From sequence record NC_023693.1: a stretch of DNA of 64,000 nt. One strand, 5' to 3'. Of this stretch, positions 10,246-56,017 are shown in pieces. Positions within the stretch are counted from its first letter, which is position 1. Every line of letters begins with the position of its first letter. Under the pieces are notes generated by a model that saw only the letters and a program-made list of their open reading frames with translations, had not been told where the DNA came from and ran no database searches. A program made the position numbers and the translations under genes. This stretch comes from Escherichia phage phi92.

Positions 10246-10711
10246 TTTAACTACAATCAAGGTGTCTGATCTACCTGTAACAACATCTGTTTCAGACACA
10301 GATTATTTTGTAACAGATCAATCAGGCATCACTAAGAAAACATCATTACGTGTTCTTCTTGCGGGTGCTGGTGTTACACGAAATCGTCTTTCTGCAAGGG
10401 GTACTGTCACAAATACCCTAGCTTTAGATATTAGCACGGCAGAGTATTTCTCTGCCACTTTATCTAGTCCAACTTGCAGTATTTCATTTAGTAATGTTCC
10501 AGTTACAACTAACATTGTTCAAAACTTTACACTATCCCTACGTCAAGGCAGTGGAGCAAATAAAGTAACGTGGCCTCAATCTGTTAAATGGAGTTTTGGT
10601 CGCGCTCCTGTTTTGAGTTATAAACAGGGAGCTACAGATATTTTTGAATTTGTTAGTTATGATAATGGAGCTACCTGGATAGGTAGTTTAGTGATGGCAG
10701 GAGTGATTTAA
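10238..10711 (+). CDS. hypothetical baseplate protein
   Basis: 157 aa ORF with start overlapping the upstream stop. Confidence 0.4.
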   Translation: MADLTTIKVSDLPVTTSVSDTDYFVTDQSGITKKTSLRVLLAGAGVTRNRLSARGTVTNTLALDISTAEYFSATLSSPTCSISFSNVPVTTNIVQNFTLSLRQGSGANKVTWPQSVKWSFGRAPVLSYKQGATDIFEFVSYDNGATWIGSLVMAGVI

Positions 10712-13587
10712 TGTCAAGAATTAAGCACAGAATTGACAATGTTTTTCAACTGATCGATGGACATATTCAGTTCTTAGATCGTAATACAGGTTTAACTGTA
10801 GATCCTACAGTGCAACACTATGTATTAAACCCACAAAACGTTCTAGCTAATAACAGACACTTTATAAACTGGACTGCTCAAGAAGGGCAACCAAACGGGG
10901 ATGCTACAACAGAAGGTCAATCCGTGCTTATTCTTGGTTGCGCTTATGCATACCTAGCTTCCGGCGATACAAAGTATTTAGACTCTGCTAAAAAATATTG
11001 GCAAGCCTATATAGATTACTTCTTTGGTGGTCAACCTATCCCAGATCCGCCAGCAAAATATCGCCCTAACTGGATTATTAACGGTAAAGAACCACGTCTT
11101 GCACACTATCCTCTTACAGATGATGGCTACCCTACACACGGAGGTTTTAAGGGTAGCTTAATGACGTGGACTAACGGTAGAACAGTTATTCCTCATGGTG
11201 CTCCACATTGGGGAGAATACCTTGATAAAGCATGGTTTGCTTTTAATGGTAATCTAGGATGGAACTCTGTAAACGCTACAGTATATGCTGTTAATGCAGA
11301 TGGTACAACAGATTGGTCTAAGAATGGAGATCAATGGGATGTTGATTGGATCATTGATCGTCTAGGACGTAAAGTTGATTGGGATGGAAATATCTTAGAA
11401 GAAGGTTTTCCAACATCTCAATACGGAACAGTTCAACTAAAAAATACTTCTGTAAACGGTACATATAAATTTAACTACGCGACTTGTAACCCTGTTGAAC
11501 ACGGTGGTTATTTAATGGAGCGTAACACTATGTGGCATAACAGACCAGTTAACGTTCCGGTAGAAATGGGCTTTCAGGATAATGCGTCAGATGCTGAAAC
11601 TTGGTGGTGTGATGCTAATTACCTGATGTACCAAATTACAGGAGAAAGAAAATATTGGCTATGCTGGCAGTCTTCACTGTTAGTGTGTCAAGATTACTCA
11701 AACATTGATATGTTTGATAAATTCTTCCGTAAGTCTACATATGCAACTATCCCGTTTACAGATGGCATCTCTTACGATTATTCGTATCCATCTACAGCAA
11801 TACCTAAATATTCAAGAGATACTTTAGGCTATATTGTTATTAGACAAGATGTTGCTGCTCAAACAACATTAGAACAGCAAGCCATTTGGTTTAAAGTTGA
11901 TCAGAACTCTAAGTTACGAGTCCAGTTTCAAGGTGTAGATGACGCAGGACATGGTATTCTTTTCCGTCCAGAGTTGGAATTAAGTAAGACCAAAGATGAA
12001 AATAACACAGTAACTTACCGCTGTGGCTTACCACTAGGTACAGCTAATATGACAAGCATGGATATTCCACTATCCAGCTTTATGAGAAGTACCCCTCCTA
12101 GTGGTGGAACATATATTATCGCAGATCCGCGAATTATTGTTGACTGGGGTGACAATACTGTGGTACAATATAAGTATGTAACAGGTATTGCTGGAACTAA
12201 TAATGACCAGATTGTTACTGCATCAATGGATACGGATGGTGGTGTTACTGTTGGTTTTTGGTTAACTCCTACATCAAAAGCTAATGTTAAGTCTATTACA
12301 TATAGAACATATGAAGATGACTTTAACATGACTATCACGGATGCTCAAGGTTGGAGATGGTGGGCTATGCTGCCTAAAACGCAAGGGGCATGGAGTACGA
12401 AGACTTTATCAGCCTCTGCTTTTAAGTTAAGTGCTTACCAGCCTAATCATCCAGAAACAGATCCTAAACCTTCAGCAATAAATCTTACTGCTGTAGATCA
12501 GGTAAATTTAGTTCTTGATACGGCTCCTGTCAATGGTTTAACAGGAACAATAGATTTCTATTGTATTAACGATGTACCTGAAAGATATTCGTCATCTTCT
12601 GGTGATGATTATACCATGTACTTCCGTATTACTGTACAGGCTTCAAGTCCTCATACTGCTAAGTTAGGTGATTGTACTATTATTGACTATAAGTTAAATA
12701 GTCTTAATTACACACCAGGAGTAATTCCATTCTCTAATATCAGTGACCCAAACACTGCATTATACGATGGATGGCGTGGTATTCCATACCCAGGATACCA
12801 GTATCCTTCCTTATACTGTTTCGCAGGTAGGGATATTGATTGGACACGTTTAAACAACAGTATTGATTTCTTGTATGATGCTCAAATGTGGTTTTATAAC
12901 ACGTTTGATCCTGTGATGCCTGGGCCTATGGCACAAGCATATGTGTGGGATCGTTGGGATGCAAGAAAATACGGTGAACCTAATACGTTTACAATGAAAC
13001 ACTGGAATGAAAAAGCGTGGGATGGTTATGAAGCTCGTGCATTCTATTGTGCTTGTCATGCTGTATACGAACTTGTACAAAGAGGAGAAACACCTCCTGA
13101 AAAACTAGTAACTGTTTGTAAAAATTGGATCAACTACCTTAAATGGTTCCAAGACAATAATGATGGAAGAACACCAACTATCTTTAATCCAGATGGTACA
13201 GTTCTTGCACCTATAGATGACTTTACTAGTCATATGTCTGCACTGTTTATGGCGGGTTGTTCAATCATGGGCTTGGCAGGTTATGATTCACAAATTCCAA
13301 ACATTGGTATTGTAGCAGACAGATGTTTTGATCTGATTCAGCAAAACTATATTGTGCTTTCCCCTAACCATCCGATGAATGGTTCCTGGAGTGTTGCACC
13401 ACGCCCAGATTCAGATAACGGAATGTTCTTTGGTTTCCATGCTGGAGAACTATTACGTGGTTTTGGTTTATATGCCTTGTATCGTAAACTAAACCCTCAA
13501 AACGCTTTACCAATTTTGGATAATAGTAACATACCAACACTAACTGTTCTAACTATGAATGATATTAGTGTTGATGTAACCAAATAA
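10711..13587 (+). CDS. large tail/baseplate-associated protein (possible receptor-binding or enzymatic)
   Basis: 958 aa, Trp/Tyr/Asn-rich, within the baseplate-fibre block; no recognised motif. Confidence 0.4.
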   Translation: MSRIKHRIDNVFQLIDGHIQFLDRNTGLTVDPTVQHYVLNPQNVLANNRHFINWTAQEGQPNGDATTEGQSVLILGCAYAYLASGDTKYLDSAKKYWQAYIDYFFGGQPIPDPPAKYRPNWIINGKEPRLAHYPLTDDGYPTHGGFKGSLMTWTNGRTVIPHGAPHWGEYLDKAWFAFNGNLGWNSVNATVYAVNADGTTDWSKNGDQWDVDWIIDRLGRKVDWDGNILEEGFPTSQYGTVQLKNTSVNGTYKFNYATCNPVEHGGYLMERNTMWHNRPVNVPVEMGFQDNASDAETWWCDANYLMYQITGERKYWLCWQSSLLVCQDYSNIDMFDKFFRKSTYATIPFTDGISYDYSYPSTAIPKYSRDTLGYIVIRQDVAAQTTLEQQAIWFKVDQNSKLRVQFQGVDDAGHGILFRPELELSKTKDENNTVTYRCGLPLGTANMTSMDIPLSSFMRSTPPSGGTYIIADPRIIVDWGDNTVVQYKYVTGIAGTNNDQIVTASMDTDGGVTVGFWLTPTSKANVKSITYRTYEDDFNMTITDAQGWRWWAMLPKTQGAWSTKTLSASAFKLSAYQPNHPETDPKPSAINLTAVDQVNLVLDTAPVNGLTGTIDFYCINDVPERYSSSSGDDYTMYFRITVQASSPHTAKLGDCTIIDYKLNSLNYTPGVIPFSNISDPNTALYDGWRGIPYPGYQYPSLYCFAGRDIDWTRLNNSIDFLYDAQMWFYNTFDPVMPGPMAQAYVWDRWDARKYGEPNTFTMKHWNEKAWDGYEARAFYCACHAVYELVQRGETPPEKLVTVCKNWINYLKWFQDNNDGRTPTIFNPDGTVLAPIDDFTSHMSALFMAGCSIMGLAGYDSQIPNIGIVADRCFDLIQQNYIVLSPNHPMNGSWSVAPRPDSDNGMFFGFHAGELLRGFGLYALYRKLNPQNALPILDNSNIPTLTVLTMNDISVDVTK

Positions 13588-13595
13588 GGAAAATA

Positions 13596-15755
13596 ATGAA
13601 ACAGGCTATTTTTACTGTAACTCGAAATACGAGAGTAAATGCCAGTTCATTCAGCTATAAGACCGTCGATGGAACGGCGGTCGCTGGTAGAGATTATGTA
13701 GCTAAACAGGGAACAGTAACGTTCCCTTCTGATGCAGATTCTGCTACTGTGGTGGTTGATGTATATGAACGTCCGGCAAACTCTTTAGATCTTTATTTTA
13801 CTCTTGAGATTACTAGCATAAGTCAAAATAACATGATGATCAATGAAGAAATTCGTTGTGTTATTACGACTAATCAATCGAATACAACCCCGCTAACTTG
13901 GCCTGTTGTGAAGTCTAGAATGTTTGATCCTAAGTTTTGGACAATAGATTCTCAATCAACAGAAAGTTGTTCTATTATCTCTAATGGTGATTCTTTCACA
14001 GCAAGAATGGTTAATAGGACAGTGGCTGGTCTTGCTGGGATTATTTGGTCAACTTACGATAAATATGATCACAAAGGATTAGGCTACCAAGAACATTCTG
14101 ACTTAAGTAAAGAGAAACTTTGGTTTAAAATGGAACTTAGTCAAGGTGTTCCTGGATTAAAAGAAGAAAAATTAATACCATCCTTAACAGTGACACTGAA
14201 GGATGAAACAGTTCATTATGTATCTCTAAACTTTTATGCAGAAGAAGTTTCAGAAGATGGTAAGACAGCAACAATCAAACTAGATTTCTCAAATTTAAAA
14301 TCTGGGCCAGAAAATGATATTGTTGTTGACACTACACAGATAGATAATATGTTCTTCTCCTTGATCTCCGCAAGGTATCAAGAAATTGAAGATGTTATAC
14401 CTGTAGACAATATGGATCTTTCCTTTAAGTTTACCATACTAGAGCCTGATACTGGTTACAGTATGATGAATATGGGTAATTTAAATGTTCCGGCGCACAC
14501 CATAAGAATGTGTACATCTTATGATGATATGTATAACCTAACCCCGGAGCGAGTTATTTCTAATACCTATAGATTAGGTTATAGGGATATGATTAACCAT
14601 TATAATGGTATGTCACACTATTATCAATTCAGTTGGGATGCTGGCTCTAATAAATGGGCTTTGAACAGAACAGAATATTTAAACCCAGCAACAGAAGCCT
14701 GGTTTGATAATTTCCACGCTAATGCAAAAGCTATGGGCTACACAGTAATGAACTCCTTAAGTTTTGAACTTATGAGTACAGTGTGTCCTGTAGAATGGGT
14801 ACAACATACTTGGAATGATGATCTGGCTGCTACAGGTTATGAGCCACCAAGTTATGTTTTATCTCCTTCAATTGATGAAGGGATGAATTATTTACAAGGT
14901 GTAATAAATAAGATAGCTTCTATATCCGCTGCTAATGATCTTCCGGTTATTATTCAGGTTGGTGAACCGTGGTGGTGGTATAACACAGCTACCAATCTAC
15001 CGTGTATTTATGATTATACAACCAAAGTTGCATTTAATAATGAAACTGGATTATATGCACAAGATGTTGGTACAGTTAAAAATTATAAAACTGGTACACC
15101 ATATGATGAATATTATGCATTCCTATCTAAAACATTAGGACTGCGTGTTGCTAAATTTGCAACAGATACCAGATTAGCATACCCTGGAGCGAAAGTTACA
15201 TTGTTACCATTTGTACCATCCATCTTAGGTAATGGTATGATGGAGTTTGTTAACTTCCCTAAAGATTATTATATTCCAGAAAACTTTGACTTTTATTGTT
15301 CAGAATGTTATGATTGGTTGTTGGAAGGTAAGATGGAAAGATCTTTTGACGCTATCACAATACCTAATGAGCAACTAGGTTTTAGTTATGATAAGATACA
15401 TTATCTTGCAGGGTTTGTTCCAGATGCAACTCTAGCACCATTATATGGCTTTGATCCTGAATCAAACTATAGGACATATTTGTGGAAAATGATTATAGGT
15501 AATATTGTATTGAATGACCAGAAGTTTGTTGGTTTATATCAATACATATGGGCTTATCCACAAATAATGCATGATTCAATAACTGTTCTTAATTCAAAAT
15601 CCCAAGTTTTTTATATGGGTAATGTGCCTTTGAATTGCTATTTGCAAGATATCACTCTTAAACAGGTAAATGTTACGATTGCTACTATAAGCGGAATTAC
15701 ACTAGCCACTAAATCTGGAGAAGATTTAGTAACAACACAAAAATTTTATATATAG
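13596..15755 (+). CDS. large tail-associated protein
   Basis: 719 aa ORF with RBS; no recognised motif. Confidence 0.4.
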   Translation: MKQAIFTVTRNTRVNASSFSYKTVDGTAVAGRDYVAKQGTVTFPSDADSATVVVDVYERPANSLDLYFTLEITSISQNNMMINEEIRCVITTNQSNTTPLTWPVVKSRMFDPKFWTIDSQSTESCSIISNGDSFTARMVNRTVAGLAGIIWSTYDKYDHKGLGYQEHSDLSKEKLWFKMELSQGVPGLKEEKLIPSLTVTLKDETVHYVSLNFYAEEVSEDGKTATIKLDFSNLKSGPENDIVVDTTQIDNMFFSLISARYQEIEDVIPVDNMDLSFKFTILEPDTGYSMMNMGNLNVPAHTIRMCTSYDDMYNLTPERVISNTYRLGYRDMINHYNGMSHYYQFSWDAGSNKWALNRTEYLNPATEAWFDNFHANAKAMGYTVMNSLSFELMSTVCPVEWVQHTWNDDLAATGYEPPSYVLSPSIDEGMNYLQGVINKIASISAANDLPVIIQVGEPWWWYNTATNLPCIYDYTTKVAFNNETGLYAQDVGTVKNYKTGTPYDEYYAFLSKTLGLRVAKFATDTRLAYPGAKVTLLPFVPSILGNGMMEFVNFPKDYYIPENFDFYCSECYDWLLEGKMERSFDAITIPNEQLGFSYDKIHYLAGFVPDATLAPLYGFDPESNYRTYLWKMIIGNIVLNDQKFVGLYQYIWAYPQIMHDSITVLNSKSQVFYMGNVPLNCYLQDITLKQVNVTIATISGITLATKSGEDLVTTQKFYI

Positions 15756-15763
15756 GAGTAAAA

Positions 15764-18520
15764 ATGTCAACTACAATTACTAATTTACCCGAAACATCAA
15801 AAGTTAATAGTTCTGATTACCTGGTTTTAGACCAGCCTGATAAGACTGTTAAAAGCACAGTTTCCAACTTTCTTGCTGACACTGGGGTGGTTTTAGCCAC
15901 CCAGCTAAAAGATACTTCTGGTGCTACCAAGTATCCAGAACTTCAAATGTCGCGCTGGAGAGATGAAGGTGATCCTAGAGGATGGGGAGCAGTAGGTGAC
16001 GGAGCAACAGACGATACTAATGCTATAACACAGCTTCTTGCTGCTATGCCTGATGGATGGATTATTGATGGGCGTAATCTCACTTTCAAGGTTACAACAC
16101 TACCAGATATAAGCAAGTTTAAAAACGCTGCTTTTGTTTACGAGCGTATTGTTGGACAACCCCTTACTTATGTATCTGAAGGTTTCTTCGATGGAAATCT
16201 GACAAAGATTACGGATACACCATTTTACAATGCTTGGACGCAAGATAAGACGTTTGTTTATGATAATGTTATATATGCACCATTTATGGCTGGCGAACGT
16301 CATGGTGTACAAAACCTCCATGTAGCGTGGGTTAAATCAGGAGATGATGGACAAACTTGGTCTATGCCAGAATGGTTAACTCCAATTCATCCTGATTATA
16401 CAGCAGACAAAGTTAACTATCATTGTATGAGTATGGGTGTATGTGGTAATCGCCTATATGCAGTCATCGAAACCCGTTACTTATCTAACATGCGATTGAA
16501 GAAAGCAGAACTTTGGTCACGTCCAATGCCTTATTATAGAAGGCCAACTGGAGGTATAACAATTAGTTCTGGGTCTACTACGGCGACGATTGTTTTAAAA
16601 AAGCATGGTCTTAAAGTTGGAGATGCTGTTAACTTTTCCAATTCGGGTGCAACTGGTGTATCTGGAAATATGACTGTTGCATCTGTAATTAACAAGGATA
16701 CATTTACGGTTACATTAGCAAGGGCTGCCACATCTAATATAGATAATACAGGAACTACTTGGCATTTTGGAACACGTTTCTGGGATAGCCCTTGGGAAAT
16801 TACAGAATTACCAGATGTTGCCTATTCTACTAATGCAGACTTATGTGTTACAGAAACCCATAGTTTTACAGTTATAGATGATGATAATTACACTTTTGCT
16901 GTGGGTTATCACAATGGTGATATTTCCCCAAGAAGATTAGGTATTTTGTACTTCAATAATGCTTACTCTGACCCAAGTTCTTTTACTCGTAGAACAATTA
17001 GTCAAGAATATGCTGACAATGCAGCAGAACCCTGCATTAAATATTACGATGGAATTTTATATTTAACTACCAGGGGTACTTCAACTTCTGCTGCTGGTTC
17101 TACATTAGCAATGAGTGCTGACCTTGGAGAAAACTGGAATTACTTAAGATTTCCTAACAACGTTCATCATACAAACCTACCATTTGCAAAAGTTGGTGAT
17201 TATCTTTATATCTTTGGTACAGAACGTTCATTTGGAGAGTGGGAAGGGCAAGAACTAGATAATAGATATAAAGGTACGTATCCTCGAACGTTTATGTGCA
17301 AGATTAATGTATCTTCATGGCCTGTATCTTTATCCAATGTTCAATGGTTTAATATCACTGATCAGATATATCAAGGGCATATTGTTAATTCTGCATGTGG
17401 CGTTGGTTCGGTATGTGTTAAAGATGGCTGGTTATATTATATCTTTGGAGGTGAAGATTTCTTATCTCCTTGGTCTATCGGAGATAATAGTAAAAAATTA
17501 TGGTACAAGCATGATGGTCATCCAGCCGATTTATATAGCTATAGACTAAAGATTACCGAACATGATTTTGTATCACGTGACTTCAAATATGGAGCTACGC
17601 CAAACCGTACATTGCCTGTATCTATGGGTACAGATGGGGTAAGGCATGTCTCAGCCCCTGTAACTTTTGATAATGATGTACAGATGTACTCTTTAACAGT
17701 TACTGGTCTTGAGCATGATGGGACACAACAATCTGCCGTTAGAGTAAAATTAGATGGTGATTATGGGGTTATTGCAAAAAATATCCCAATAAAAAATCCT
17801 TCTGAACAGCGACTAATCTTATGTGGAGGAGAAACTCCTTACACTACTGATGGATCGTTATTACAATTGTATGGTTCAAACCATACGTATCCAAACAGAG
17901 CAATTTTATATGCCCCAGGAGGAGCATATACACAAAATAATTTCATGCCGTACTTAGATGGACAAGTTTCATTAGGTGGTGCATCTAATAGATGGTCAGA
18001 AGTGTATGCATCTACAGGAACCATTAATACTTCAGACGGAACATTAAAAACTAAACCTACAGAGATTGAAGATATTTTACTGAAAGCATGGGAAGATATT
18101 CATGTAATCTCTTACCAATGGCTTAGTGCTGTCGCGGAGAAAGGAGATTCTGCGCGTATTCATTTTGGTGTTATCGCTCAAGATGTAAGAGATATTCTGA
18201 TTAATTATGGTTTAATGGATGAAAATAGTACTGATTGTAAGTATGCTTTTCTATGTTATGATGAATACCCTGCTATGTATGATAGTGTTGTTACGGGACA
18301 AAAAGAAATCACTTTACTTGACGATGAAGGAAATAATGTAATTGATGAAGAAGGTAATCCAGTAACAATTGTAGAAGATGTTGTAGAAACTATCGAAGTA
18401 ATTCCAGCAGGATCGCGATGGGGTATCCGCGCTGACCAAATGTTTTTTATTGAGATGGCTTATCAACGTAAAAAGTTAAAAGCTCTTGAAGAAAGACTTG
18501 CAACCCTAGAAAGTAAATAA
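15764..18520 (+). CDS. tailspike/fibre with pectate-lyase-like motif, Asp-box repeats and C-terminal intramolecular chaperone (peptidase S74-like)
   Basis: WGAVGDGATDDTNAITQLL motif; Asp-boxes SGDDGQTWS and SADLGENWN; C-terminal region with NTSDGTLKTK and a coiled-coil tail, as in self-cleaving chaperone domains of endosialidase/T5 pb1-type fibres. Confidence 0.55.
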   Translation: MSTTITNLPETSKVNSSDYLVLDQPDKTVKSTVSNFLADTGVVLATQLKDTSGATKYPELQMSRWRDEGDPRGWGAVGDGATDDTNAITQLLAAMPDGWIIDGRNLTFKVTTLPDISKFKNAAFVYERIVGQPLTYVSEGFFDGNLTKITDTPFYNAWTQDKTFVYDNVIYAPFMAGERHGVQNLHVAWVKSGDDGQTWSMPEWLTPIHPDYTADKVNYHCMSMGVCGNRLYAVIETRYLSNMRLKKAELWSRPMPYYRRPTGGITISSGSTTATIVLKKHGLKVGDAVNFSNSGATGVSGNMTVASVINKDTFTVTLARAATSNIDNTGTTWHFGTRFWDSPWEITELPDVAYSTNADLCVTETHSFTVIDDDNYTFAVGYHNGDISPRRLGILYFNNAYSDPSSFTRRTISQEYADNAAEPCIKYYDGILYLTTRGTSTSAAGSTLAMSADLGENWNYLRFPNNVHHTNLPFAKVGDYLYIFGTERSFGEWEGQELDNRYKGTYPRTFMCKINVSSWPVSLSNVQWFNITDQIYQGHIVNSACGVGSVCVKDGWLYYIFGGEDFLSPWSIGDNSKKLWYKHDGHPADLYSYRLKITEHDFVSRDFKYGATPNRTLPVSMGTDGVRHVSAPVTFDNDVQMYSLTVTGLEHDGTQQSAVRVKLDGDYGVIAKNIPIKNPSEQRLILCGGETPYTTDGSLLQLYGSNHTYPNRAILYAPGGAYTQNNFMPYLDGQVSLGGASNRWSEVYASTGTINTSDGTLKTKPTEIEDILLKAWEDIHVISYQWLSAVAEKGDSARIHFGVIAQDVRDILINYGLMDENSTDCKYAFLCYDEYPAMYDSVVTGQKEITLLDDEGNNVIDEEGNPVTIVEDVVETIEVIPAGSRWGIRADQMFFIEMAYQRKKLKALEERLATLESK

Positions 18521-18548
18521 TACCGCTTCGGCGGTATTTCAATCTTTA
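18521..18548 (+). terminator. intrinsic terminator
   Basis: TACCGC-ttcg-GCGGTA followed by TTTCAATCTTTA. Confidence 0.5.
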
Positions 18549-18568
18549 TATCTCGCTTAGAGGTACTC

Positions 18569-18835
18569 ATGGTTAAAGAGAAAAATGGTTTTAAAAAATT
18601 TATTCGAGGTATGTTTTGTACATATCCTGATAATAAAGTCAGTTCTACTAAAGTTTGGAATGCTATTGGTATGATTGTTATGTCCAGTATGTTTATTTAT
18701 TTGGGAATTGATAAAGAAATTCCTGAATGGATGGGCTGGGCTTTTGTTTTTATGATCACACCATCCAGATTAATGAAGAATTTAATAGATTTACGTTGGG
18801 GCAGATCACCTGCCCCTGATAAGGAGGATAACTAA
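18569..18835 (+). CDS. small membrane protein (two predicted TM helices)
   Basis: 88 aa with hydrophobic stretches VWNAIGMIVMSSMFIYLGI and WMGWAFVFMITPS. Confidence 0.4.
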   Translation: MVKEKNGFKKFIRGMFCTYPDNKVSSTKVWNAIGMIVMSSMFIYLGIDKEIPEWMGWAFVFMITPSRLMKNLIDLRWGRSPAPDKEDN

Positions 18836-22521: not shown

Positions 22522-22863
22522 ATGGAGCTAACAGAAGTATGGGATATCGCTAAAGAGGCGATTATCCCTCTTATTGGTGTAATCTGGGTGGTCTTCAAAC
22601 AGAAGATAGATGATATAGCAAGTGATTTGGATAAAATGGAAGACAAATACCGCGAACTAGAAAAGAAGTTGGTGTTTGTTGAATCCACTTATGCTACCAA
22701 AGCAGAACTTGCTCAAATGCTTAACCAGATCAACTCTACATTAATGGCAAATAATACTGCCTTAGAACAGAAGATTGAAAAAATAATGGATTTAAAAAAT
22801 GCTCCTGTTCAATTAATGCTAGAGGAGATTACGAAGCGCACACAAAGTAAGGACAAAAATTAA
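22522..22863 (+). CDS. small protein with N-terminal TM helix and coiled coil
   Basis: 113 aa; AIIPLIGVIWVVF hydrophobic segment followed by a coiled-coil region. Confidence 0.35.
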   Translation: MELTEVWDIAKEAIIPLIGVIWVVFKQKIDDIASDLDKMEDKYRELEKKLVFVESTYATKAELAQMLNQINSTLMANNTALEQKIEKIMDLKNAPVQLMLEEITKRTQSKDKN

Positions 22864-25277
22864 TGGCGAATTTTCCAACATATCCTGCTACGACACTAGA
22901 ACAAGGTGTTGATCTGGTTATATTCTCGTCTAACCAGATGCATGATGTTATTAATGGGGATGCTACAGCAACTGTAGAAACCGAAACAGGTTTAATACCT
23001 ACACTGCGTAAAGCACTTGTTGATAACTTCTTCTTTAAGAGTCCTGTTGCTTGGTCAGCAGGATCAACTGAAACTGTATTTAACCAGTTACGTTATTTTG
23101 AAAACGGTATCTTGAGTGGGTACTATTATGCCCCATCTGCCACTACTGCGAACCCTGTACCTATGCAGGGCACACCTGTAGGGGACAGTAACTGGACTCT
23201 GTACGCTCTTAAAACTGAACAGTTAGCTTCAGATGTGTATCCTTGGTATTTTAAAGGTGCTACAGGATATGAAACAGAAATCAGTCCTCCTTATATCTTT
23301 GATAATGCTATTGTCACCATTAACGGTGTAATTCAGATTCAAGGTGAAGCATTTACTATCAAAGATAGTAAAATTATTCTGGCAGAACCATTAGGTTTAG
23401 ATCCGTCTACTGGTCTACCTAACAAATTGTTTGCTTTTATTGGTAAAACAACAGCCTCTACTTCTTACGTAGAGAAAAACCTTTTGTCATCTACCACTGG
23501 TGCAGCAATGGTTGGTCTTCCATCTGGAGGCAACCTGTTACAAGCTCAATACTTTGTAACGCCTGAGCAGTTTGGTGCAATTGGTGATGGAGTTACCGAT
23601 GATACTCAAGCAATTTTAAAAACTATTACTTTCGCTAACACGAATAACATTCAAGTACGTGCAGATAAGAATTATAGATTCACAAGCTCAATTGCTATGT
23701 CTGGTGTTCGTTGGTATGGTGGTACATTCACTGGTAACGGTGGAACAATGATTTCTACTGTGTCCTGTTGGATGGAAAACGTTCGCTTTGAAAAATGTTA
23801 TGTTAAGATGTTAGGTGGTGATTGCCGATTCTATCGTAATATCTTCTCCAACGCAACATCTACAGCAGCATTCTTAATGCAAGCAATGACAAGTGAAGGT
23901 ACGTTGGACTTCAGTTACAACGAAATGTATGGTTGTAAATATGCGATCCTGCAACAAGGTACTGGAGAAGTAATGACCTATGGGCGTTACTCTAACAACT
24001 ATATTCACGATATCAAAGGTGATGCTATTGAACTTAACGTAGTTCAAAAACACTACACTGAAGGTTTGATTATCGAGAATAACCACATTGCTAACGTAGA
24101 TGCTTCTGGACAAGGTGCAAACTGGGGTATTGGTATTGGTGTAGCAGGTAGTGGCCCATATGGTGTTGATGTTCCTGATTCACAATATGTACGTAACTTC
24201 AGTATCGTTGGGAATAGGGTTTACAATTGCCGTCAATGTCTACACGTTGAAATGGGTAAAAACTTCACGATACGTGATAATGAAGTTTATCCTAACACAG
24301 CAGTTTCAACAGGTACAGGTTTAACTACTTGTGGTGTTGCATTATACGGATGCCAAGATTTTGAAGTTGATGGTTTAACTGGTTATCTGCTTAATGATCC
24401 ATCTGTTTCAACACGCATGGTCTTTATTGACTGGGGTGTTAACAATGGTAGATATGCGGGGCCACCAATTAACTTTACAATTAAGAATTTGGATATTCCA
24501 GAATCTTCAATTGAGATTGCAACATCTGGATCAGATGCCTGGGAAAACTCTACAATTGTTAGTAATATCAATTGTAATGTTTTTAAATGGCGTGGGCTAC
24601 CATCTAGCTCTACCTTTAATAATATTCGTTGCCGTAGTATTGACTTTATTGGTCAACACGGAAGCGGAGAAGGAAGTGGTGGCGGTTTCTATACTCGCAG
24701 CCAATTCACGTATATGAAGTGGGTAGGATGTACAGCACTTAGCGGAGATGAAACAACAGTTTCTTTTGCTAAAATCTACACTGATCGTTGCGATCAGGTT
24801 GGAAATAACTTTGGTGTTCCAACTGCTGTTGATGGTACAGGTCATCGTGGGCCAGTTTTAACTACTATTTCTGAACAATATTTTACAGCTTATGATGAAT
24901 TCCCAGGTGGGCGTGAATTCCCTACTGGAACAGTTATTCATTGTGCAAGCGGTAAAAAACATGTTGTTACAGTAGGTGGTGCTTTCTTTAGTGACAACGA
25001 GAAAATAAAAGCAACTGTTACAGGTCAAACCTATCTACAGTCTAATGCTTTAAACTGGGCTAGTAATGGCTACGCTAAAGCAGCAGGTACTAAGATTGTT
25101 ATTCCAGGTGCAGGTGCAAATGGCGGCGATCTTGTGACAACTATAGCACGTGCTACATACGTGACAAATAGTTTGTACACAATAGATATTGCAGATCCAA
25201 TTGTAACACCTACAGCAGAGAATACACAAATTAAAGCTCTGAATCCTGTTACTTTTGTTACTGTCAATAATGCTTAA
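22863..25277 (+). CDS. tailspike protein with right-handed beta-helix (pectate lyase-like), putative polysaccharide depolymerase
   Basis: FGAIGDGVTDDTQAILKTI motif typical of Pectate_lyase_3-type tailspikes; 804 aa; Asn/Gly-rich beta-strand repeats. Confidence 0.55.
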   Translation: MANFPTYPATTLEQGVDLVIFSSNQMHDVINGDATATVETETGLIPTLRKALVDNFFFKSPVAWSAGSTETVFNQLRYFENGILSGYYYAPSATTANPVPMQGTPVGDSNWTLYALKTEQLASDVYPWYFKGATGYETEISPPYIFDNAIVTINGVIQIQGEAFTIKDSKIILAEPLGLDPSTGLPNKLFAFIGKTTASTSYVEKNLLSSTTGAAMVGLPSGGNLLQAQYFVTPEQFGAIGDGVTDDTQAILKTITFANTNNIQVRADKNYRFTSSIAMSGVRWYGGTFTGNGGTMISTVSCWMENVRFEKCYVKMLGGDCRFYRNIFSNATSTAAFLMQAMTSEGTLDFSYNEMYGCKYAILQQGTGEVMTYGRYSNNYIHDIKGDAIELNVVQKHYTEGLIIENNHIANVDASGQGANWGIGIGVAGSGPYGVDVPDSQYVRNFSIVGNRVYNCRQCLHVEMGKNFTIRDNEVYPNTAVSTGTGLTTCGVALYGCQDFEVDGLTGYLLNDPSVSTRMVFIDWGVNNGRYAGPPINFTIKNLDIPESSIEIATSGSDAWENSTIVSNINCNVFKWRGLPSSSTFNNIRCRSIDFIGQHGSGEGSGGGFYTRSQFTYMKWVGCTALSGDETTVSFAKIYTDRCDQVGNNFGVPTAVDGTGHRGPVLTTISEQYFTAYDEFPGGREFPTGTVIHCASGKKHVVTVGGAFFSDNEKIKATVTGQTYLQSNALNWASNGYAKAAGTKIVIPGAGANGGDLVTTIARATYVTNSLYTIDIADPIVTPTAENTQIKALNPVTFVTVNNA

Positions 25278-25281
25278 TTAA

Positions 25282-25304
25282 AAAGGGGCGAAAGCCCCTT
25301 TATA
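25282..25304 (+). terminator. intrinsic terminator
   Basis: AAAGGGGC-gaaa-GCCCCTTT followed by AT-rich sequence. Confidence 0.6.
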
Positions 25305-25318
25305 AAAGGAGTAGTAAA

Positions 25319-27280
25319 GTGATTTTAACACGTCCAAATAGTGCCATTGCAGACATGGTAGAGTCTCGCTATAGAAAGCGTAGAAGTTTTGCAAGTGGTT
25401 TTACCTTAAGAGATGCTCGTGAAGCATTGCTCTTTGAAACTGACGGTAACTACTATCAGTGGAAAGGTTCTCTACCTAAAGTTGTACCTGCTAACTCTAC
25501 TCCTACATCTACTGGAGGGATTTCAGATACAGCTTGGAAAAATGTGGGTAATGCAGATGACATTGCTCAAATAGAATCAGAATTAGATGCTATTGAAGCT
25601 GAAATTGAAGATCTTAGAGAATCCATCCCAGAAGCTGGTAAATCAGCTTACCAAATTGCCGTAGACAATGGTTTCCAAGGTACTGAGACACAGTGGTTGG
25701 CTTCTTTAAAAGGTGATCCAGGTGCTCCATTAAAGCTACTAGGGACGCTATCTAATACCAACCAATTACCTACAACTGGAAACAATGCAGGGGATGCATG
25801 GATTGTAGGCGAGAATATGTATGCTTGGGATGGTACTGCTTGGAGAAAAGTAAACTCACAGGGGCCAGAAGGTAAATCTGCTTATGAAGTATGGCTTGCA
25901 GCAGGAAACGAAGGTACAGAACTAGATTATCTTGCCGCAATTAAAGGTGATAAAGGGGAGCCTGGCCCAGAGGGGCCACAAGGTGTGCCAGGTAATAATG
26001 CTAATGGTTTTGATTACCAAGGCGCAGCTAATTCCGTTTCAGATCTTCCTTCTGCATCTCCTGGAAACACATCTCAAGCATGGAGTATTGGTACATATCT
26101 ATACGTGTCAAACGGTGTAGAATGGATCAATATGGGCGCTATAGTGGGGCCAAAAGGAGATAAAGGCGACAAAGGAGATAAGGGTAACACTGGTGATTCA
26201 GCTTATCAAGTCTGGTTAAATGCTGGTAACGTTGGTACTATTGACGAATATATTGCCTCTCTGAAAGGAGAAAAAGGTGATAAGGGAGACAAGGGTGATC
26301 AAGGTGCACAGGGTATACAAGGCTTGACGGGGCCAACTGGTGCAGGGTTGACCATTATTGACATTCTGACTAGCACTTCTGAACTACCACAAACTGGAGA
26401 AGATGGTGATGGTTATCTGATCAATAATGAACTTTGGGTCTGGTTGCAAGGAGCCACAGAGTGGACAAATGTTGGTCGTTTAGCTGGTACTCCAATCACT
26501 GCAAAAGGATACGTTGCGTCTGCAAGTGCACTTCCTCCTACAGCCAATTACGGTGATGCTTATCTGACGGAAGATACAGGTCATCTTTACATTTACACCT
26601 ATGATGAACAAACTCAAACTGCTGAATATGTAGATATGGGTAGTTTGAAAGGTGATAAGGGTGAAAAAGGTGACGCTGGTACTAACGGTACAGACGGTGC
26701 AACTTGGATTGTTAAAACAACAGATCCAATCTCTAGTGATGGTAAACAAGGTGATTATGCCTTTAATATCTCCACTGGCGAGGTGTTCTTAAAAACATCT
26801 GCAACTATCTGGACTTCTCAAGGTACACTACCTAGTATCACAGATGCACCTAGTGATGGTAAGACTTATGCTCGTAAAGATGGAGCATGGGAAGAACTCA
26901 CTAATTCTGTAGATGGTCAAGATATAGTTCCAACAAAAGTAACAACTAATTTTATAGAGGTTACAGCATATACTAACAATTCTGTTACAGGGGACTGGAC
27001 ACCTCCAGGAACACATAACATGAATGTGTTGAATCTTACTGGTAACTCTACTATAAAAGCATGGCCTGGTGTCGAAGATAGCACAAAACCTAAACCATTC
27101 TCTGCAATAGTTTATCTTATCCAAGATGCCACTGGAGGTCGTACTGTTACTTTAGATCCATCTTACAAAGTAATTGGTTCCAGTGATATTAATACAGATC
27201 CTAACGGAGTAACAATACTACAACTAACATATTGTGGTGTTGGCGATTACGTGGATGCTATTGTTGCTAAACGCACATAA
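25319..27280 (+). CDS. tail fibre protein with collagen-like Gly-X-Y repeats
   Basis: GTG start with RBS; Gly-X-Y runs GPKGDKGDKGDKGNTGD, GEKGDKGDKGDQGAQGIQGLTGPTGAG, GEPGPEGPQGVPG and KGDKGEKGDAGTNGTDG. Confidence 0.6.
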   Translation: MILTRPNSAIADMVESRYRKRRSFASGFTLRDAREALLFETDGNYYQWKGSLPKVVPANSTPTSTGGISDTAWKNVGNADDIAQIESELDAIEAEIEDLRESIPEAGKSAYQIAVDNGFQGTETQWLASLKGDPGAPLKLLGTLSNTNQLPTTGNNAGDAWIVGENMYAWDGTAWRKVNSQGPEGKSAYEVWLAAGNEGTELDYLAAIKGDKGEPGPEGPQGVPGNNANGFDYQGAANSVSDLPSASPGNTSQAWSIGTYLYVSNGVEWINMGAIVGPKGDKGDKGDKGNTGDSAYQVWLNAGNVGTIDEYIASLKGEKGDKGDKGDQGAQGIQGLTGPTGAGLTIIDILTSTSELPQTGEDGDGYLINNELWVWLQGATEWTNVGRLAGTPITAKGYVASASALPPTANYGDAYLTEDTGHLYIYTYDEQTQTAEYVDMGSLKGDKGEKGDAGTNGTDGATWIVKTTDPISSDGKQGDYAFNISTGEVFLKTSATIWTSQGTLPSITDAPSDGKTYARKDGAWEELTNSVDGQDIVPTKVTTNFIEVTAYTNNSVTGDWTPPGTHNMNVLNLTGNSTIKAWPGVEDSTKPKPFSAIVYLIQDATGGRTVTLDPSYKVIGSSDINTDPNGVTILQLTYCGVGDYVDAIVAKRT

Positions 27281-27283
27281 TCA

Positions 27284-27308
27284 AAGCCCCTTCGGGGGCT
27301 TATTATTT
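27284..27308 (+). terminator. intrinsic terminator
   Basis: AAGCCCC-ttcg-GGGGCTT followed by ATTATTT. Confidence 0.6.
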
Positions 27309-27319
27309 AAGGAGATTAA

Positions 27320-27928
27320 ATGTATCCTATTCCTTTATTTATGTCAACAACATCAGCTTCAGTAGTAACAGCTACATCTATAACTACTTCCTCTATTGGT
27401 ATTGCAATAGTTGGTGGTAAAAAACAACTGACATACACAGTTACACCGGAAGATGGTGCATTATTTGATATAGCTTTTTCATCTTCAGATAATACCAAAA
27501 TGGTTATAGATAATAGTGGTATGATGGAGTTTGTTGCCGAAGGTGGTTTTGATGCAATAATGACAGCTAAAAATAATTTAGGTGCTGTCTTAACTGATCA
27601 ATCTGGTGGCTATGCTTCAGAATTAAGTGTGTACACTGAAAGTCTATCGGCTATGGATGTAGGCACTACTCAACAGTTGGTTGCTACAATCAGTCCAGAA
27701 GGTGCTAAAGACCTTCCAGATATGGTAATTACATACACCACAACAGATCCAGAAGTAGCTACTGTAAGCCCTACAGGGTTAATAACTGCTCTTAAAGATG
27801 GCGGTTGCCGTATAGGTTGTACTGCAACGTATCAAGGAACAGTTGTGGCCTCTGATAGGTCTTATTTAGGTGTTAATGCTATTCCTGTTATTTCTAATGT
27901 AACAGCCGTATCTTTAATAACTCAATAG
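27320..27928 (+). CDS. bacterial Ig-like (Big_2-type) domain protein
   Basis: Pattern GTTQQLVATISPEGA...VATVSPTGLITALKDGGCRIGCTATYQG resembles Big_2 domains; 202 aa. Confidence 0.45.
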   Translation: MYPIPLFMSTTSASVVTATSITTSSIGIAIVGGKKQLTYTVTPEDGALFDIAFSSSDNTKMVIDNSGMMEFVAEGGFDAIMTAKNNLGAVLTDQSGGYASELSVYTESLSAMDVGTTQQLVATISPEGAKDLPDMVITYTTTDPEVATVSPTGLITALKDGGCRIGCTATYQGTVVASDRSYLGVNAIPVISNVTAVSLITQ

Positions 27929-28094
27929 CTACAGATGATTCGTTCATTAAAGAAGTTATTGTCTTTGCTGGACAAGATAACGTAAATGCACACTTTACAG
28001 AACTATCTGGTGCAAATAAAGCAGCAATGAGTAGCACAACAGCCCGTAATGCATATGCTACGCAACGTGGTTTAGCAAATGCTGAAGTTCTTCC

Positions 28095-28982
28095 GTGTTA
28101 AATACAGCTTCTGGATCATCAGCAGCAGATAAATATGCTGACGATAAAGCTGGAACAGGTACACCAGATAACTACTGGTATGATCTGGATAACACAGCAG
28201 ATGGGCCATGCTTAACTAACTTTATCACTAAAGTCACACCTTATGCAAGTAAGGTTAAAGCAATTATTTGGGGACAAGGTGAAAATGATGCTGTATCAGC
28301 ATCTTCGACTGTTGCAGGTAGGTACAGTAACACTACACGTTACCATGATGCTACGATAGCTATCTTTGATAAGATGCGTACAATAGTTCCTGCTTCTCAA
28401 GCAAAAATTGTTTGGCAGATCCTAGGACGTTCTTATTTATATGGTGTAGAAGTTAATGGTGTGGATTGGCAGAAGTACAGAAATGTACAAAGAACCATCT
28501 CTACAGCACGTGATGATGTTATCATTGGTTCTTGGGTAGATGGTGCTGAACGTTACAGTGGTTATGTTTATGAAGAAGGTATTGATGGTCGTATCCATTA
28601 TATTTCTTCTGTATACCAAACAGCAGCTACAAAACTTGCTAAATCAGCAGCAGACGGTACAGATTTAACATCAACGTCACCTGTTTGGGTTGATATGTCT
28701 GTTCCAACAGGAGGAGCCGCTGTAAGACAAGCTAACCAAGATGTAATTATCTCTTGGGAACCAGCAGGATATACTAAACATTACTTCCGAAATGTAAACG
28801 TCCTCACAGCAGCAATTCTTACAGAACAAACCCTGGATACTAACACTTACACATTTACTTATGCAGATCAGGTTGAACAATATGGATTTGCAGCAGGTAC
28901 AACAGTGTTTGATGTTGCACACTATGATGCTGATAATGACGTGTTATCACCTCTTGTCAGATTTACAGTCAATGTTACATAA
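28095..28982 (+). CDS. hypothetical protein, possible SGNH-like carbohydrate esterase
   Basis: GTG start; motifs WGQGENDA (GxND-like) and DVAHYD (DxxH-like); an upstream open frame in another reading frame contains VIVFAGQDN. Confidence 0.3.
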   Translation: MLNTASGSSAADKYADDKAGTGTPDNYWYDLDNTADGPCLTNFITKVTPYASKVKAIIWGQGENDAVSASSTVAGRYSNTTRYHDATIAIFDKMRTIVPASQAKIVWQILGRSYLYGVEVNGVDWQKYRNVQRTISTARDDVIIGSWVDGAERYSGYVYEEGIDGRIHYISSVYQTAATKLAKSAADGTDLTSTSPVWVDMSVPTGGAAVRQANQDVIISWEPAGYTKHYFRNVNVLTAAILTEQTLDTNTYTFTYADQVEQYGFAAGTTVFDVAHYDADNDVLSPLVRFTVNVT

Positions 28983-28986
28983 ACAA

Positions 28987-29015
28987 AAAGGAGCCATTAG
29001 GCTCCTTTTCTTTTA
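28987..29015. terminator. bidirectional terminator between the convergent modules
   Basis: AAAGGAGCC-atta-GGCTCCTTT flanked by T-runs on both strands; lies between the + strand stop at 28982 and the - strand stop at 29018. Confidence 0.6.
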
Positions 29016-54329: not shown

Positions 54330-54800
54330 TTAGTCAGATTCCCAAATGTTGTCTTTCTTAATCCACATTCGTTGATTATCTGAACCTCTATAACGTTTCG
54401 TTGTTGGTTGATTCATATCATACTTACCATCTATCACTATGTCAACCAGTTTTTTAATTTTTTCTGGAATTTCCTCAAAAAGATATCCTGTATATAAGAC
54501 AATATCTTTTTTGTTTCCAAAACAATCTCTTACCTTCTCAAGAACATACTCTACAGTGTCAATGTTCTCTTTGTCAAGAGGTTCACCACCTAAAACTGTT
54601 AATCCTTTAATGAAAGGTCGAGATAAATCTTTCAAGATAAGATCTAATGTTTCAGTAGTGAACTCTTGTCCGTAGTTATACGACCAGGCTTTCTGGTTAA
54701 AGCAGCCACGGCAACCGTGGCTACAACCGCTCACCCACAAAGAGCATCTTACACCGTCACCGTTGAGCATGTCAACAGGTTCATATCCGGCGTAATTCAA
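54330..54800 (-). CDS. nrdG: anaerobic ribonucleoside-triphosphate reductase activating protein (radical SAM)
   Basis: Cys cluster CSHGCRGC (CxxxCxxC), 156 aa, immediately downstream of nrdD with ATGA overlap. Confidence 0.7.
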   Translation of the reverse strand: MNYAGYEPVDMLNGDGVRCSLWVSGCSHGCRGCFNQKAWSYNYGQEFTTETLDLILKDLSRPFIKGLTVLGGEPLDKENIDTVEYVLEKVRDCFGNKKDIVLYTGYLFEEIPEKIKKLVDIVIDGKYDMNQPTTKRYRGSDNQRMWIKKDNIWESD

Positions 54801-55738
54801 AAATGTTTCTCCCTTTCTAGTACCTCTTGCATTTTACCTTTATTATAAGGGCGAGAGTTAGGGGCAGAAAGGTATCCTGACACTCTTCTGATCACAGATA
54901 TGGATTCTTCTTCATGATTACCGCAACTTGGACACTCGAAGCCTTTAGCCGTTGCTTTAAATTCACCATGAAAACCACATTTGAAACACTGATCTACAGG
55001 TTGGTTCACGCCAAAATAAGGAATTTTATTGTAGGCATAATCTACAAGAGTTTCCAGTGCTTGCAAGTTATTTTTAAGGTTTGGTGTTTCTACATAACCT
55101 ATGTTCCCACCATTACTAATTTGTGCAAAACCTTCCTCATAATCCCACTTTTGGAACGGGGTAGTGTGCATCCATACAGGTTGATGGAAAGAGTTTGTCA
55201 AGTAGTCACGATCAATAGAACCAGGATAGCGATCATTTAACGCTTTGGCAAATTTATAGCACAAGGATTCTGCTGGTGTTCCATACAAACTAAAAGCTAA
55301 ACCAGAACGTTCTTTAAATGTGCCACAGATATCCTTCATATATTGAAGGATGTTTTTACCCATTGCTTTTGGATTGGTGTTACCTGGGTATAAAATCTCC
55401 ATAGCTTCTGCTAAACCTACATAACCGATACTAATAGAGGCATAACCACCTTCGAATAGTTTACCAATCTCTTCATTAGCTTCTAATCGAGCTAAAGCCC
55501 CTTCCATAAACAATGTAGGGTTTTGAGATGCTTTGGTATGTCTAATACGGTTAACACGTAGCATATGTGCCTTATACGCCATCTCCATATGTTGTTCCAA
55601 CAGTTCAGTAAATAAGATGCCCTTTTCACGGGACTCTGCTGCAATGATAGGTAAGTTTAAAGAAACTACGCCTAAGTTGAAACGACCATCATATTTTTCA
55701 CCTTGCTCTGTTGCATAGTATGACAAGAAACTTCTACA
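54797..55738 (-). CDS. nrdD: anaerobic ribonucleoside-triphosphate reductase, exon 2
   Basis: Begins CRSFLS... in continuity with exon 1; C-terminal zinc ribbon (CFKCG...CPSCG) and glycyl-radical region RRVSGYL. Confidence 0.7.
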   Translation of the reverse strand, partial: CRSFLSYYATEQGEKYDGRFNLGVVSLNLPIIAAESREKGILFTELLEQHMEMAYKAHMLRVNRIRHTKASQNPTLFMEGALARLEANEEIGKLFEGGYASISIGYVGLAEAMEILYPGNTNPKAMGKNILQYMKDICGTFKERSGLAFSLYGTPAESLCYKFAKALNDRYPGSIDRDYLTNSFHQPVWMHTTPFQKWDYEEGFAQISNGGNIGYVETPNLKNNLQALETLVDYAYNKIPYFGVNQPVDQCFKCGFHGEFKATAKGFECPSCGNHEEESISVIRRVSGYLSAPNSRPYNKGKMQEVLEREKHF

Positions 55739-56017
55739 CATTATGTTCAAAGTGGCTCGCAAGGCCACTCCCGCACCATTACGTGCTGCTGCATGTCACC
55801 ATGCAGATCAGACTATATCTTCATGCTTAAAGCATGTCTACCATTTGGGGTGTCATAGGCTTACACCCTACGCTGCTACATTCATCACAGCTAGTCGTTA
55901 GGCATTTCGTAACAGTACCCCCTTCTTCTGTGTTGGGAGTTCTGTTACGTTTAGCACGGGATTGTCTCGTTGAGAGTTCCCCCGTTTAGGCAGATTTTAC
56001 ATGAGCAGTTATAGTTT
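55739..56017 (-). ncRNA. group I self-splicing intron (ORF-less) interrupting nrdD
   Basis: 279 nt with no ORF separating two in-frame nrdD halves; exon 1 ends in U and the intron ends in G; paired elements present (ACGACTA/TAGTC P7-like, CTGCATG-GTGA-CATGCAG hairpin with GNRA loop, CATGC-TTTAA-GCATG hairpin); resembles my recollection of the T4 nrdD (sunY) intron core. Confidence 0.65.

Follow-up and report, generated by a model that had tools for sequence, protein, structure and literature searches.

In this work, we have analysed the adsorption genes of Escherichia phage phi92 (Stephanstirmvirinae, Justusliebigvirus), to which the window, the whole stretch of 64,000 nucleotides under study (record NC_023693.1), belongs. 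Our interest lies in positions 22863-28982, which form the distal end of the phi92 tail and adsorption gene module and hold four open reading frames (ORFs) that are exact matches to gp150, gp151, gp152 and gp153. The explanation that, in our judgement, very probably accounts best for the whole is that gp150 is a tailspike, gp151 a collagen-like fibre, and gp152 together with gp153 the wreck of a third tail-protein gene. Apart from the status of gp152 and gp153, this is the already published multivalent apparatus of phi92, a textbook example that has been in the literature since 2012 (Schwarzer et al.) and was taken up again by cryo-EM in 2026. The unusually elaborate adsorption apparatus that the original prediction, made from the letters alone, had seen in this DNA is the one which phi92 shares with its relatives and which is known as a 'Swiss army knife'; several co-expressed tailspikes and fibres are described for Justusliebigvirus in the BASEL collection (PMC8594841). 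Such an apparatus is described for phi92-like phages and for Vequintavirinae, and the present locus is the one described there, with co-expressed tailspikes and fibres carrying glycan-degrading domains. The prediction was largely accurate in what it saw and right in its reading of two of the three proteins.

Organisation of the locus

The DNA from 22863 to 27909 is 95-99.6% identical to that of more than 50 Justusliebigvirus phages in GenBank, in which the genes are annotated as colanidase tailspike, (potential) tail fibre and tail component protein, and the record of phage Paula carries explicit phi92 gp147-gp161 labels. Across 22863-28982 the minus-strand ORFs are short and the GC skew is positive to about 28000 and then turns, which argues that the plus-strand genes are the real ones. 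The features on which the following sections draw are collected in Table 1.

Table 1. Genes, domains, lesions and hairpins of the phi92 locus, in window positions
Feature	Position	Residues	Strand	Remarks
gp149, ORF of 113 aa	22522-22863		+	Hydrophobic N-terminal helix, rest coiled-coil-like
gp150, ORF of 804 aa	22863-25277		+	Exact match to YP_009012482.1
Putative N-terminal adaptor region of gp150	22896-23240	12-126	+	Outside the crystal construct
GAIGDGVTDDT motif, start of the catalytic domain	23574-23606	238-248	+	Inside the region solved in 6E0V
TSP_Ig-like domain, C-terminal in gp150	24972-25238	704-792	+	PF20745, E 8e-15, 55.3 bits vs cutoff 27.9
GC-rich hairpin with GAAA tetraloop after gp150	25282-25301		+	-14.5 kcal/mol, z -3.5; weak U tract; UUUAUAAAA
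gp151, ORF of 653 aa, GTG start	25319-27280		+	Exact match to YP_009012483.1
Tail_spike_N docking domain	25349-25549	11-77	+	PF18668, E 3e-21, 75.6 bits vs cutoff 25
Gly-X-Y run 1, 6 triplets	25946-25999	210-227	+	GDKGEPGPEGPQGVPGNN
Gly-X-Y run 2, 6 triplets	26147-26200	277-294	+	GPKGDKGDKGDKGNTGDS
Gly-X-Y run 3, 9 triplets	26267-26347	317-343	+	Carries the Pfam Collagen match
Gly-X-Y run 4, 6 triplets	26651-26704	445-462	+	
Foldon-like motif of gp151	26828-26905	504-529	+	Pfam Fibritin_C PF07921, 19.5 bits vs cutoff 21; LPSITDAPSDGKTYARKDGAWEEL
C-terminal beta-rich domain of gp151, presumed distal tip	26906-27277	530-653	+	C-terminus of phrog_4549
Terminator-like hairpin with UUCG tetraloop after gp151	27284-27301		+	-13.1 kcal/mol
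gp152, ORF of 202 aa; frame A, 5' fragment	27320-27928		+	Exact match to YP_009012484.1; first 198 aa homologous to the intact protein
Junction of the 226-bp deletion (vs arall)	27903-27910		+	Between two CAGCCGT direct repeats; breakpoint 27909/27910
Frame B remnant, 63 codons	27910-28100		+	No start codon, ends in TAA; start of the esterase-like domain (VFAGQDNV)
2-bp GT insertion	28095-28098		+	GTGT vs GT in relatives; shifts the frame again
gp153, ORF of 295 aa, GTG start; frame C, 3' remnant	28095-28982		+	Exact match to YP_009012485.1; rest of the N4-gp65-like esterase-type domain and C-terminal FN3-like domain
Bidirectional intrinsic terminator after gp153	28986-29009		.	-16.3 kcal/mol, z -5.1

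A disrupted third tail-protein gene

The original prediction had placed a protein with Big_2-like domains after the tailspike and the fibre, as a further receptor-binding protein. The domain assignment holds, as gp152 matches Big_2 (PF02368) in two stretches, that is, as tandem immunoglobulin (Ig)-like domains (E 7e-15, 55.2 bits, cutoff 22.8). The gene is another matter, since what the ORF encodes is not an intact receptor-binding protein: the ORF covers only the 5' part of a tail gene of 628 or 939 aa. In the profile of phrog_32204, which has 655 positions, gp152 corresponds to positions 1-219 and gp153 to positions 358-655, and the corresponding gene is one ORF of 628 aa in phage arall and of 939 aa in Paula, phiWec187 and others. 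When the phi92 DNA was compared base by base with that of arall (locus L002, 1621-3507), two lesions were found. The larger, a 226-bp deletion, takes out an FN3-like domain (arall aa 197-272) and one further nucleotide, and the smaller is an insertion of 2 bp. The last four residues of gp152 are out-of-frame junk. Judged from these alignments, gp152 and gp153 are the remains of one disrupted third tail-protein gene and not two genes.

The intact form is the rule among relatives. No fewer than 52 of 54 related phage records align with the intact gene colinearly over its first 1775-1780 bp, without any change in length, and the third gene is also intact in the IMG/VR loci and in a close JGI metagenome locus. 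In its complete form the protein would be laid out as tandem Big_2 domains, an FN3 domain, an N4-gp65-like esterase-type domain and a second FN3 region. In phi92 the gene would lie in three frames, and at most the 202-aa tandem-Ig fragment would be made. gp152 retains a strong Shine-Dalgarno sequence and its ATG start, and before the GTG of gp153 no Shine-Dalgarno sequence was found. The third tail protein would have lost its enzymatic or glycan-binding part, and phi92 is probably without one of the glycan-directed tail proteins of its group. This matters because phi92 serves as a model for the group and its gp152 and gp153 are pieces of one gene that nearly all relatives keep intact; the loss of the third protein could affect host-range comparisons and the assignment of fibre densities that are still unassigned. 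A literature search on phi92 gp152 and gp153, with Schwarzer et al. 2012 outside its scope, returned nothing relevant, and their status as fragments was not mentioned in the papers that it covered.

What has been lost is best seen in the arall protein, in which the two Big_2 domains are followed by an FN3-like domain, then by a domain that is related to two regions of gp65 of phage N4, and finally by FN3-like repeats at the C-terminus. The match to N4 gp65 (PDB 9LC0) covers gp65 residues 429-592 and 743-1067 (E 7e-25). With gp65, the non-contractile tail sheath and receptor-binding protein of N4 (9LC0, 9YF4), the intact third gene has two things in common, an esterase-type domain and C-terminal FN3-like repeats, over gp65 residues 429-592, 743-1067 and beyond. 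The two differ in that gp65 is a podovirus protein of 1382 aa, whereas the third-gene product has 628 or 939 aa and belongs to a myovirus, and in that the N-terminal tandem Big_2 module has no counterpart in gp65; in phi92, moreover, the gene is broken. A further difference lies in block I, which reads GESQ in gp65 and GQDN in the third gene. We found GQDN in the three sequences examined, namely arall (aa ~290-296), a second member of its cluster (P0040) and the phi92 remnant (27960-27980, frame B), with Asp in place of the Ser of SGNH/SASA esterases and of N4 gp65. Some annotators name the product 'tail carbohydrate esterase'. We make no claim of esterase activity: membership of the SGNH/SASA carbohydrate esterases is not supported, the SASA score of 16.3 bits lying below the cutoff (24.8) and the GQDN block lacking the serine nucleophile. 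Given its significant homology to the gp65 domain, the domain resembles an esterase-type fold, but its catalytic competence is doubtful, and it may bind glycans rather than hydrolyse them.

Phi92 is not the only phage in which the gene has been cut short. Salmonella phage UAB_1 (OL656106.1, 2501-3278) carries an independent 1111-bp deletion that begins 22 nt upstream of where the phi92 junction lies and leaves a 190-aa 'putative Ig-like protein' ORF and a 73-aa ORF. On 12 contigs a third shortened version of the protein is seen, P0055, with 193 aa; this allele had no match in complete E. coli genomes or in GTDB genome contigs, and in IMG/VR the search returned only two loci, both intact. The kept lengths are 198 aa in phi92, 189 aa in UAB_1 and 193 aa in P0055, and all three stop no more than about 10 codons from where Ig domain 2 ends. 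More distant relatives combine the tandem Big_2 module with other partners, an RCC1-like propeller (L013, L016) or a ConA-like lectin domain (L011), and in two of these loci there are proteins that end naturally right after Ig domain 2 (582 aa in L013, 383 aa in L011). These recurrent truncations and natural ends mark the end of Ig domain 2 as a module boundary, and, taken together with the swapped partners, they make the tandem Ig module the constant element of a variable slot. The repetition of third-gene truncation at the same module boundary is only a modest new point. As a tentative extension, to which we give somewhat less than even chances, the tandem Big_2 domains would be the structurally required core of a modular third slot across the Stephanstirmvirinae, with partners swapped and repeatedly shed, and the loss of this blade of the 'Swiss army knife' in phi92 would mark it as dispensable, or as selected against, on hosts that are capsulated or kept in the laboratory. 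In phage ALITA (PP359570.1, 18458-21277) the 939-type allele is annotated as two ORFs of 719 and 172 aa, which may reflect a further disruption or a frameshift introduced in sequencing.

How far could the phi92 fragment be something other than decay? That gp152 is a stand-alone Ig-like receptor-binding gene was rejected on the colinearity of the 628/939-aa gene in the 52 relatives, on the two lesions of phi92, and on the lack of a hairpin after the gp152 stop (-5.7 kcal/mol, z -1.0). A subtler proposal is that selection has kept gp152 as a working short version, which would serve either as a small Ig-like adhesin that decorates the virion or as the core that the third tail protein structurally requires. 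The translation signals that it keeps speak for this, as do the three independent truncations so close to the end of Ig domain 2, the distant relatives whose proteins stop naturally at the same point, and the tandem Big_2 module being the only constant part among differing architectures. Nevertheless, we consider it rather unlikely, since close relatives so consistently keep the full gene, two separate frame-breaking lesions are what decay under relaxed selection would be expected to produce, the four C-terminal residues have no homology to the intact protein, and there is no evidence for the presence of gp152 in the virion. It is more improbable still that the split is an error in the phi92 reference or its assembly, with the real gene intact or carrying an in-frame deletion. 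In its favour, there is one phi92 sequence only, each exact ORF being found on a single contig of 148,612 bp, and had the deletion run cleanly from one CAGCCGT repeat to the other, 225 bp would be missing and the frame kept, so that the observed 226 bp needs the loss of one extra T. Yet a deletion of 226 bp is untypical of base-calling error, an insertion of the two bases GT is not of the homopolymer kind, the lesions do not cancel out (net change -224 bp), and UAB_1 shows that real deletions occur at the same place. We therefore retain the reading of gp152 and gp153 as one broken gene.

The colanidase tailspike gp150

The original prediction had described an 804-aa beta-helix tailspike from its GAIGDGVTDDT motif, and the protein is indeed the colanidase gp150: over its residues 180-804 it shows 100% identity to PDB 6E0V ('Bacteriophage Phi92 gp150'), and the two crystal structures (6E0V, 6E0W) are of the same protein, with no difference. 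The motif lies at residues 238-248. Profile searches, which had been proposed together with that prediction as a check, place gp150 in the colanic acid degradation family phrog_6117 (E 4e-270), as they place gp151 in tail fibre families. A core like that of the host protein WcaM was recognised at aa 358-553 (E 7e-29), a domain-level match that lies below the equivalog cutoff. No pectate-lyase-type Pfam family matched gp150 at E < 0.01, and the beta-helix assignment rests on the solved structure and on knowledge of the family. gp150 is a trimeric tailspike whose catalytic domain depolymerises colanic acid, as the literature and the crystal structures show. According to a 2026 electron cryo-microscopy (cryo-EM) paper on phi92 (PMC13450770), which discusses both gp150 and gp151 by name, the protein cleaves this polysaccharide hydrolytically at its beta-1,4 bond between Glc and Fuc.

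The N-terminal region of gp150 precedes the crystallised part. Its residues 12-126 match residues 15-130 of chain g of PDB 9CUY, the baseplate entry of phage phiTE (E 9.5e-18). This chain is a 793-aa tail fibre protein, most likely the phiTE long tail fibre, of which residues 14-171 have been built into baseplate density. We infer that the first ~125 residues of gp150 are a virion-attachment adaptor to the baseplate or to the fibre network.

The collagen-like fibre gp151

The 653-aa protein had been described as a fibre with several collagen-like Gly-X-Y runs, and this description fits well. gp151 matches the tail fibre family phrog_15437 with 1363 bits, and all its strong PHROG matches are tail fibre families. 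Its docking domain at residues 11-77 matches the N-domains of solved tailspikes in the PDB, among them TSP3 and TSP4 of phage CBA120 and several others. After a short coiled-coil-like stretch, a module is repeated three times, in the order helical 'GKSAYxxWLxxGNxGT...LKG' element, Gly-X-Y run and small beta-rich knob with the signature 'LP..G..GDAW.V....Y.W.G..W'. These modular repeats came to light only when segments cut by hand were aligned with MAFFT, and a BLAST search of gp151 against itself for internal repeats gave no matches.

Four Gly-X-Y runs are present, of 6, 6, 9 and 6 triplets, and none of them is interrupted, a point that bears on their ability to form a collagen helix. The Pfam Collagen family (PF01391) scores 33.2 bits, above its cutoff of 27.2, and in 5000 shuffles of gp151 neither a run of 9 triplets nor a set of four runs of at least 5 triplets was reached once. 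Run 1 is the only proline-rich one, and the others are rich in KGD and KGE, a composition that, going by work on collagen peptides, would be stabilising. The runs would form a collagen-type triple helix.

The foldon-like motif that follows is kept in the homologues of gp151, some of which score 32.6 bits with Fibritin_C, and in a Foldseek comparison 28 residues of it align to T4 fibritin with 46% identity. As in the T4 foldon, the motif, AP(S/R)DG..Y.RKDG.W, comes after a fibrous region; the difference from T4 fibritin is that in gp151 it is not C-terminal, a domain of ~125 aa coming after it. Homologues of this C-terminal domain carry PF26209.

Put together, gp151 would be a trimeric fibre that begins with a tailspike-type docking domain and a short coiled coil and continues with a unit that occurs three times and is made up of a helical 'SAYxxWLxxGNxGT...LKG' element, a spacer of Gly-X-Y triplets and a small beta knob; another two knobs, the fourth Gly-X-Y run and the foldon-like trimerisation motif would come next, and the fibre would end in a C-terminal tip of ~125 aa, presumably receptor-binding. 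The Gly-X-Y runs would act as short triple-helical spacers, kept in register by the trimeric domains that flank them, and they would set the reach of the fibre, with a length that evolves slowly and in whole triplets.

The same domain order is found in the orthologues, which are 96.6-99.6% identical within Justusliebigvirus and 62% identical in phAPEC8 (gp087 tail fibre), and the orthologue of PaulScherrer is named 'lateral tail fiber protein with type I collagen domain'. In their charged, KGD/KGE-rich and uninterrupted runs with trimerising flanks, the gp151 repeats are like those of the streptococcal proteins Scl1 and Scl2 and of Legionella Lcl, from which they differ in having 6-9 triplets instead of tens and in being interspersed with globular knobs. 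Membership of gp151 in the Scl1, Scl2 or Lcl families was rejected, as the NCBIfam scores of 45, 32 and 29 bits lie under cutoffs of 400, 325 and 500.

Length variation was predicted for the short nucleotide repeats encoding the runs around 26150-26200 and 26267-26350. The repeats are there and coincide with runs 2 and 3: Tandem Repeats Finder (TRF) detected imperfect 9-bp arrays at 26153-26178 (2.9 copies, inside run 2) and, with a 9/18-bp period, at 26267-26304 (4.1 copies, inside run 3), as well as a third 9-bp array at 26648-26673, the arrays having 2.9-4.1 copies with 75-82% matches. The variation itself was borne out only weakly. Over the 851-bp segment that holds all the runs, every close relative among the matches listed (55 records covering at least 80% of the query) had either equal length or 9 bp more; runs 2 and 3 were invariant in these about 55 isolates, and the longer form, in ECGD1, EC.P2, PD06 and PD211, was due to one added GEK triplet in run 4. 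In the 90% protein cluster, runs 1-3 had identical length in 15 of the 15 members read, and the extra run 4 triplet was found in two of them, on two slightly different backgrounds (P0021 and P0028). The more distant phAPEC8 orthologue has longer runs than gp151 (+6, +3 and +15 aa). All length differences among the homologues are multiples of 3 aa and always lie inside the runs. The runs thus appear to tolerate changes in length and to behave as spacers, not as fast-varying loci, and their slow change by whole triplets would make them structural spacers and not hypervariable switches.

Two other views of gp151 have to be weighed against that of a baseplate fibre with slowly evolving spacers. 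Since a foldon-like motif of the T4 fibritin type is present, the protein might be a head or neck fibre, like the fibritin whiskers or the capsid spikes; this is improbable, because the N-domain, which is decisive for docking, is a Tail_spike_N as in CBA120 and the other tailspikes, the gene sits within the tail module between gp150 and another tail gene, and the tail fibre families are the ones that gp151 matches strongly. Less credible still is that the 9-bp repeats are fast-slipping contingency loci by which the length of the fibre varies between isolates. The arrays that TRF detects, and the appearance of the 9-bp variant of run 4 on both the P0021 and the P0028 background, are what can be said for it, and against it stand the shortness and imperfection of the arrays and the constant length of runs 2 and 3, in all the close relatives listed as in the whole set of cluster members read. 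A tail fibre with structural collagen-like spacers is thus the reading of gp151 that we prefer.

There are several points that count against our interpretation of the three genes as a whole. AlphaFold3 models of gp150 and gp151 did not fit the 'fibre II' cryo-EM density of phi92 (PMC13450770). The Gly-X-Y runs of gp151 are short (6-9 triplets) and have few prolines for a triple helix. The Fibritin_C score of gp151, 19.5 bits, falls just under the cutoff of 21. The AlphaFold2 model of its C-terminal domain, a monomer built from a 9-sequence alignment, reached a predicted local distance difference test score (pLDDT) of 63, and a Foldseek search of this domain against the PDB found nothing at E <= 0.001, the best match being the Pa223 capsid spike at E 0.016, which is weak and only a hint. 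Finally, both frame-breaking lesions in the third gene rest on the single phi92 reference sequence.

Transcription and translation signals

It had been predicted that each of the three genes has its own terminator, and this was contradicted: hairpins follow gp150 and gp151, none follows the 202-aa ORF, and the next one is found after gp153. The hairpin after gp150 is an annotated terminator in phage Paula, and our consensus scan did not flag it. The U tracts after the gp150 and gp151 hairpins are short and interrupted, and the only canonical bidirectional terminator in the region is that at 28986-29009. This terminator coincides with the maximum of the cumulative GC skew; it lies where the plus-strand tail module meets a minus-strand replication and modification module, which in the annotation of relatives holds a methyltransferase, a DNA polymerase and a primase-helicase. 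Promoter-like sites across the region were not enriched (21 found against 21.5 expected), and separate promoters for each gene are therefore unsupported.

The start of gp151 has a ribosome-binding signal, AAGGAG, 7 nt upstream of its GTG. At the other end of gp150, the stop of gp149 overlaps the gp150 start (TAATG, window 22861-22865), which suggests translational coupling of gp149 with the tailspike; gp149 has no significant Pfam family.

Upstream adsorption genes and other features of the window

Three large proteins are encoded upstream of gp150. gp141 (958 aa) had no Pfam, NCBIfam or PDB match. The 719-aa protein at 13596-15755, gp142 by its position, has a Calx-beta domain, NCTSP_N and a TIM-barrel of the N4 sheath family, and it matches N4 gp64 (E 2e-27) and part of gp65, so that pieces of the receptor-binding gp64/gp65 sheath of N4 appear to be split, in the phi92-like phages, between gp142 and the gp152/gp153 gene. 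The 918-aa protein, gp143, matches the endosialidase 4HIZ with 1611 bits. Its cassette at 15764-18520 (with flanks 10711-18835) is not common to other Justusliebigvirus genomes, which match the flanks only (98-99% identity, 67-68% coverage), and is ~84% identical in phAPEC8-like phages (ESCO5, phAPEC8), which points to cassette exchange between genera at the gp143 slot.

Four records with the name 'Campylobacter phage' and the host Campylobacter jejuni (MG065639, MG065645, MG065656 and MG065689) are 98.5% identical to the locus across 5 kb, and are probably Justusliebigvirus genomes that were given a wrong label or came in as contaminants.

No tRNA gene was found in the 64-kb window, and 22863-28982 is without an Rfam match, the sole one of the window lying elsewhere. 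It is a group I intron on the minus strand at 55789-56063 (RF00028, 70.6 bits, E 7e-16), within nrdD, the gene for the anaerobic ribonucleotide reductase, and it is similar to the intron of T4 nrdD (sunY). The upstream ORF (56009-56875) corresponds to positions 1-263 of the NRDD profile and the downstream ORF (54797-55768) to positions 263-562 and the glycyl-radical domain; an nrdG-like activase follows nrdD at 54330-54800.

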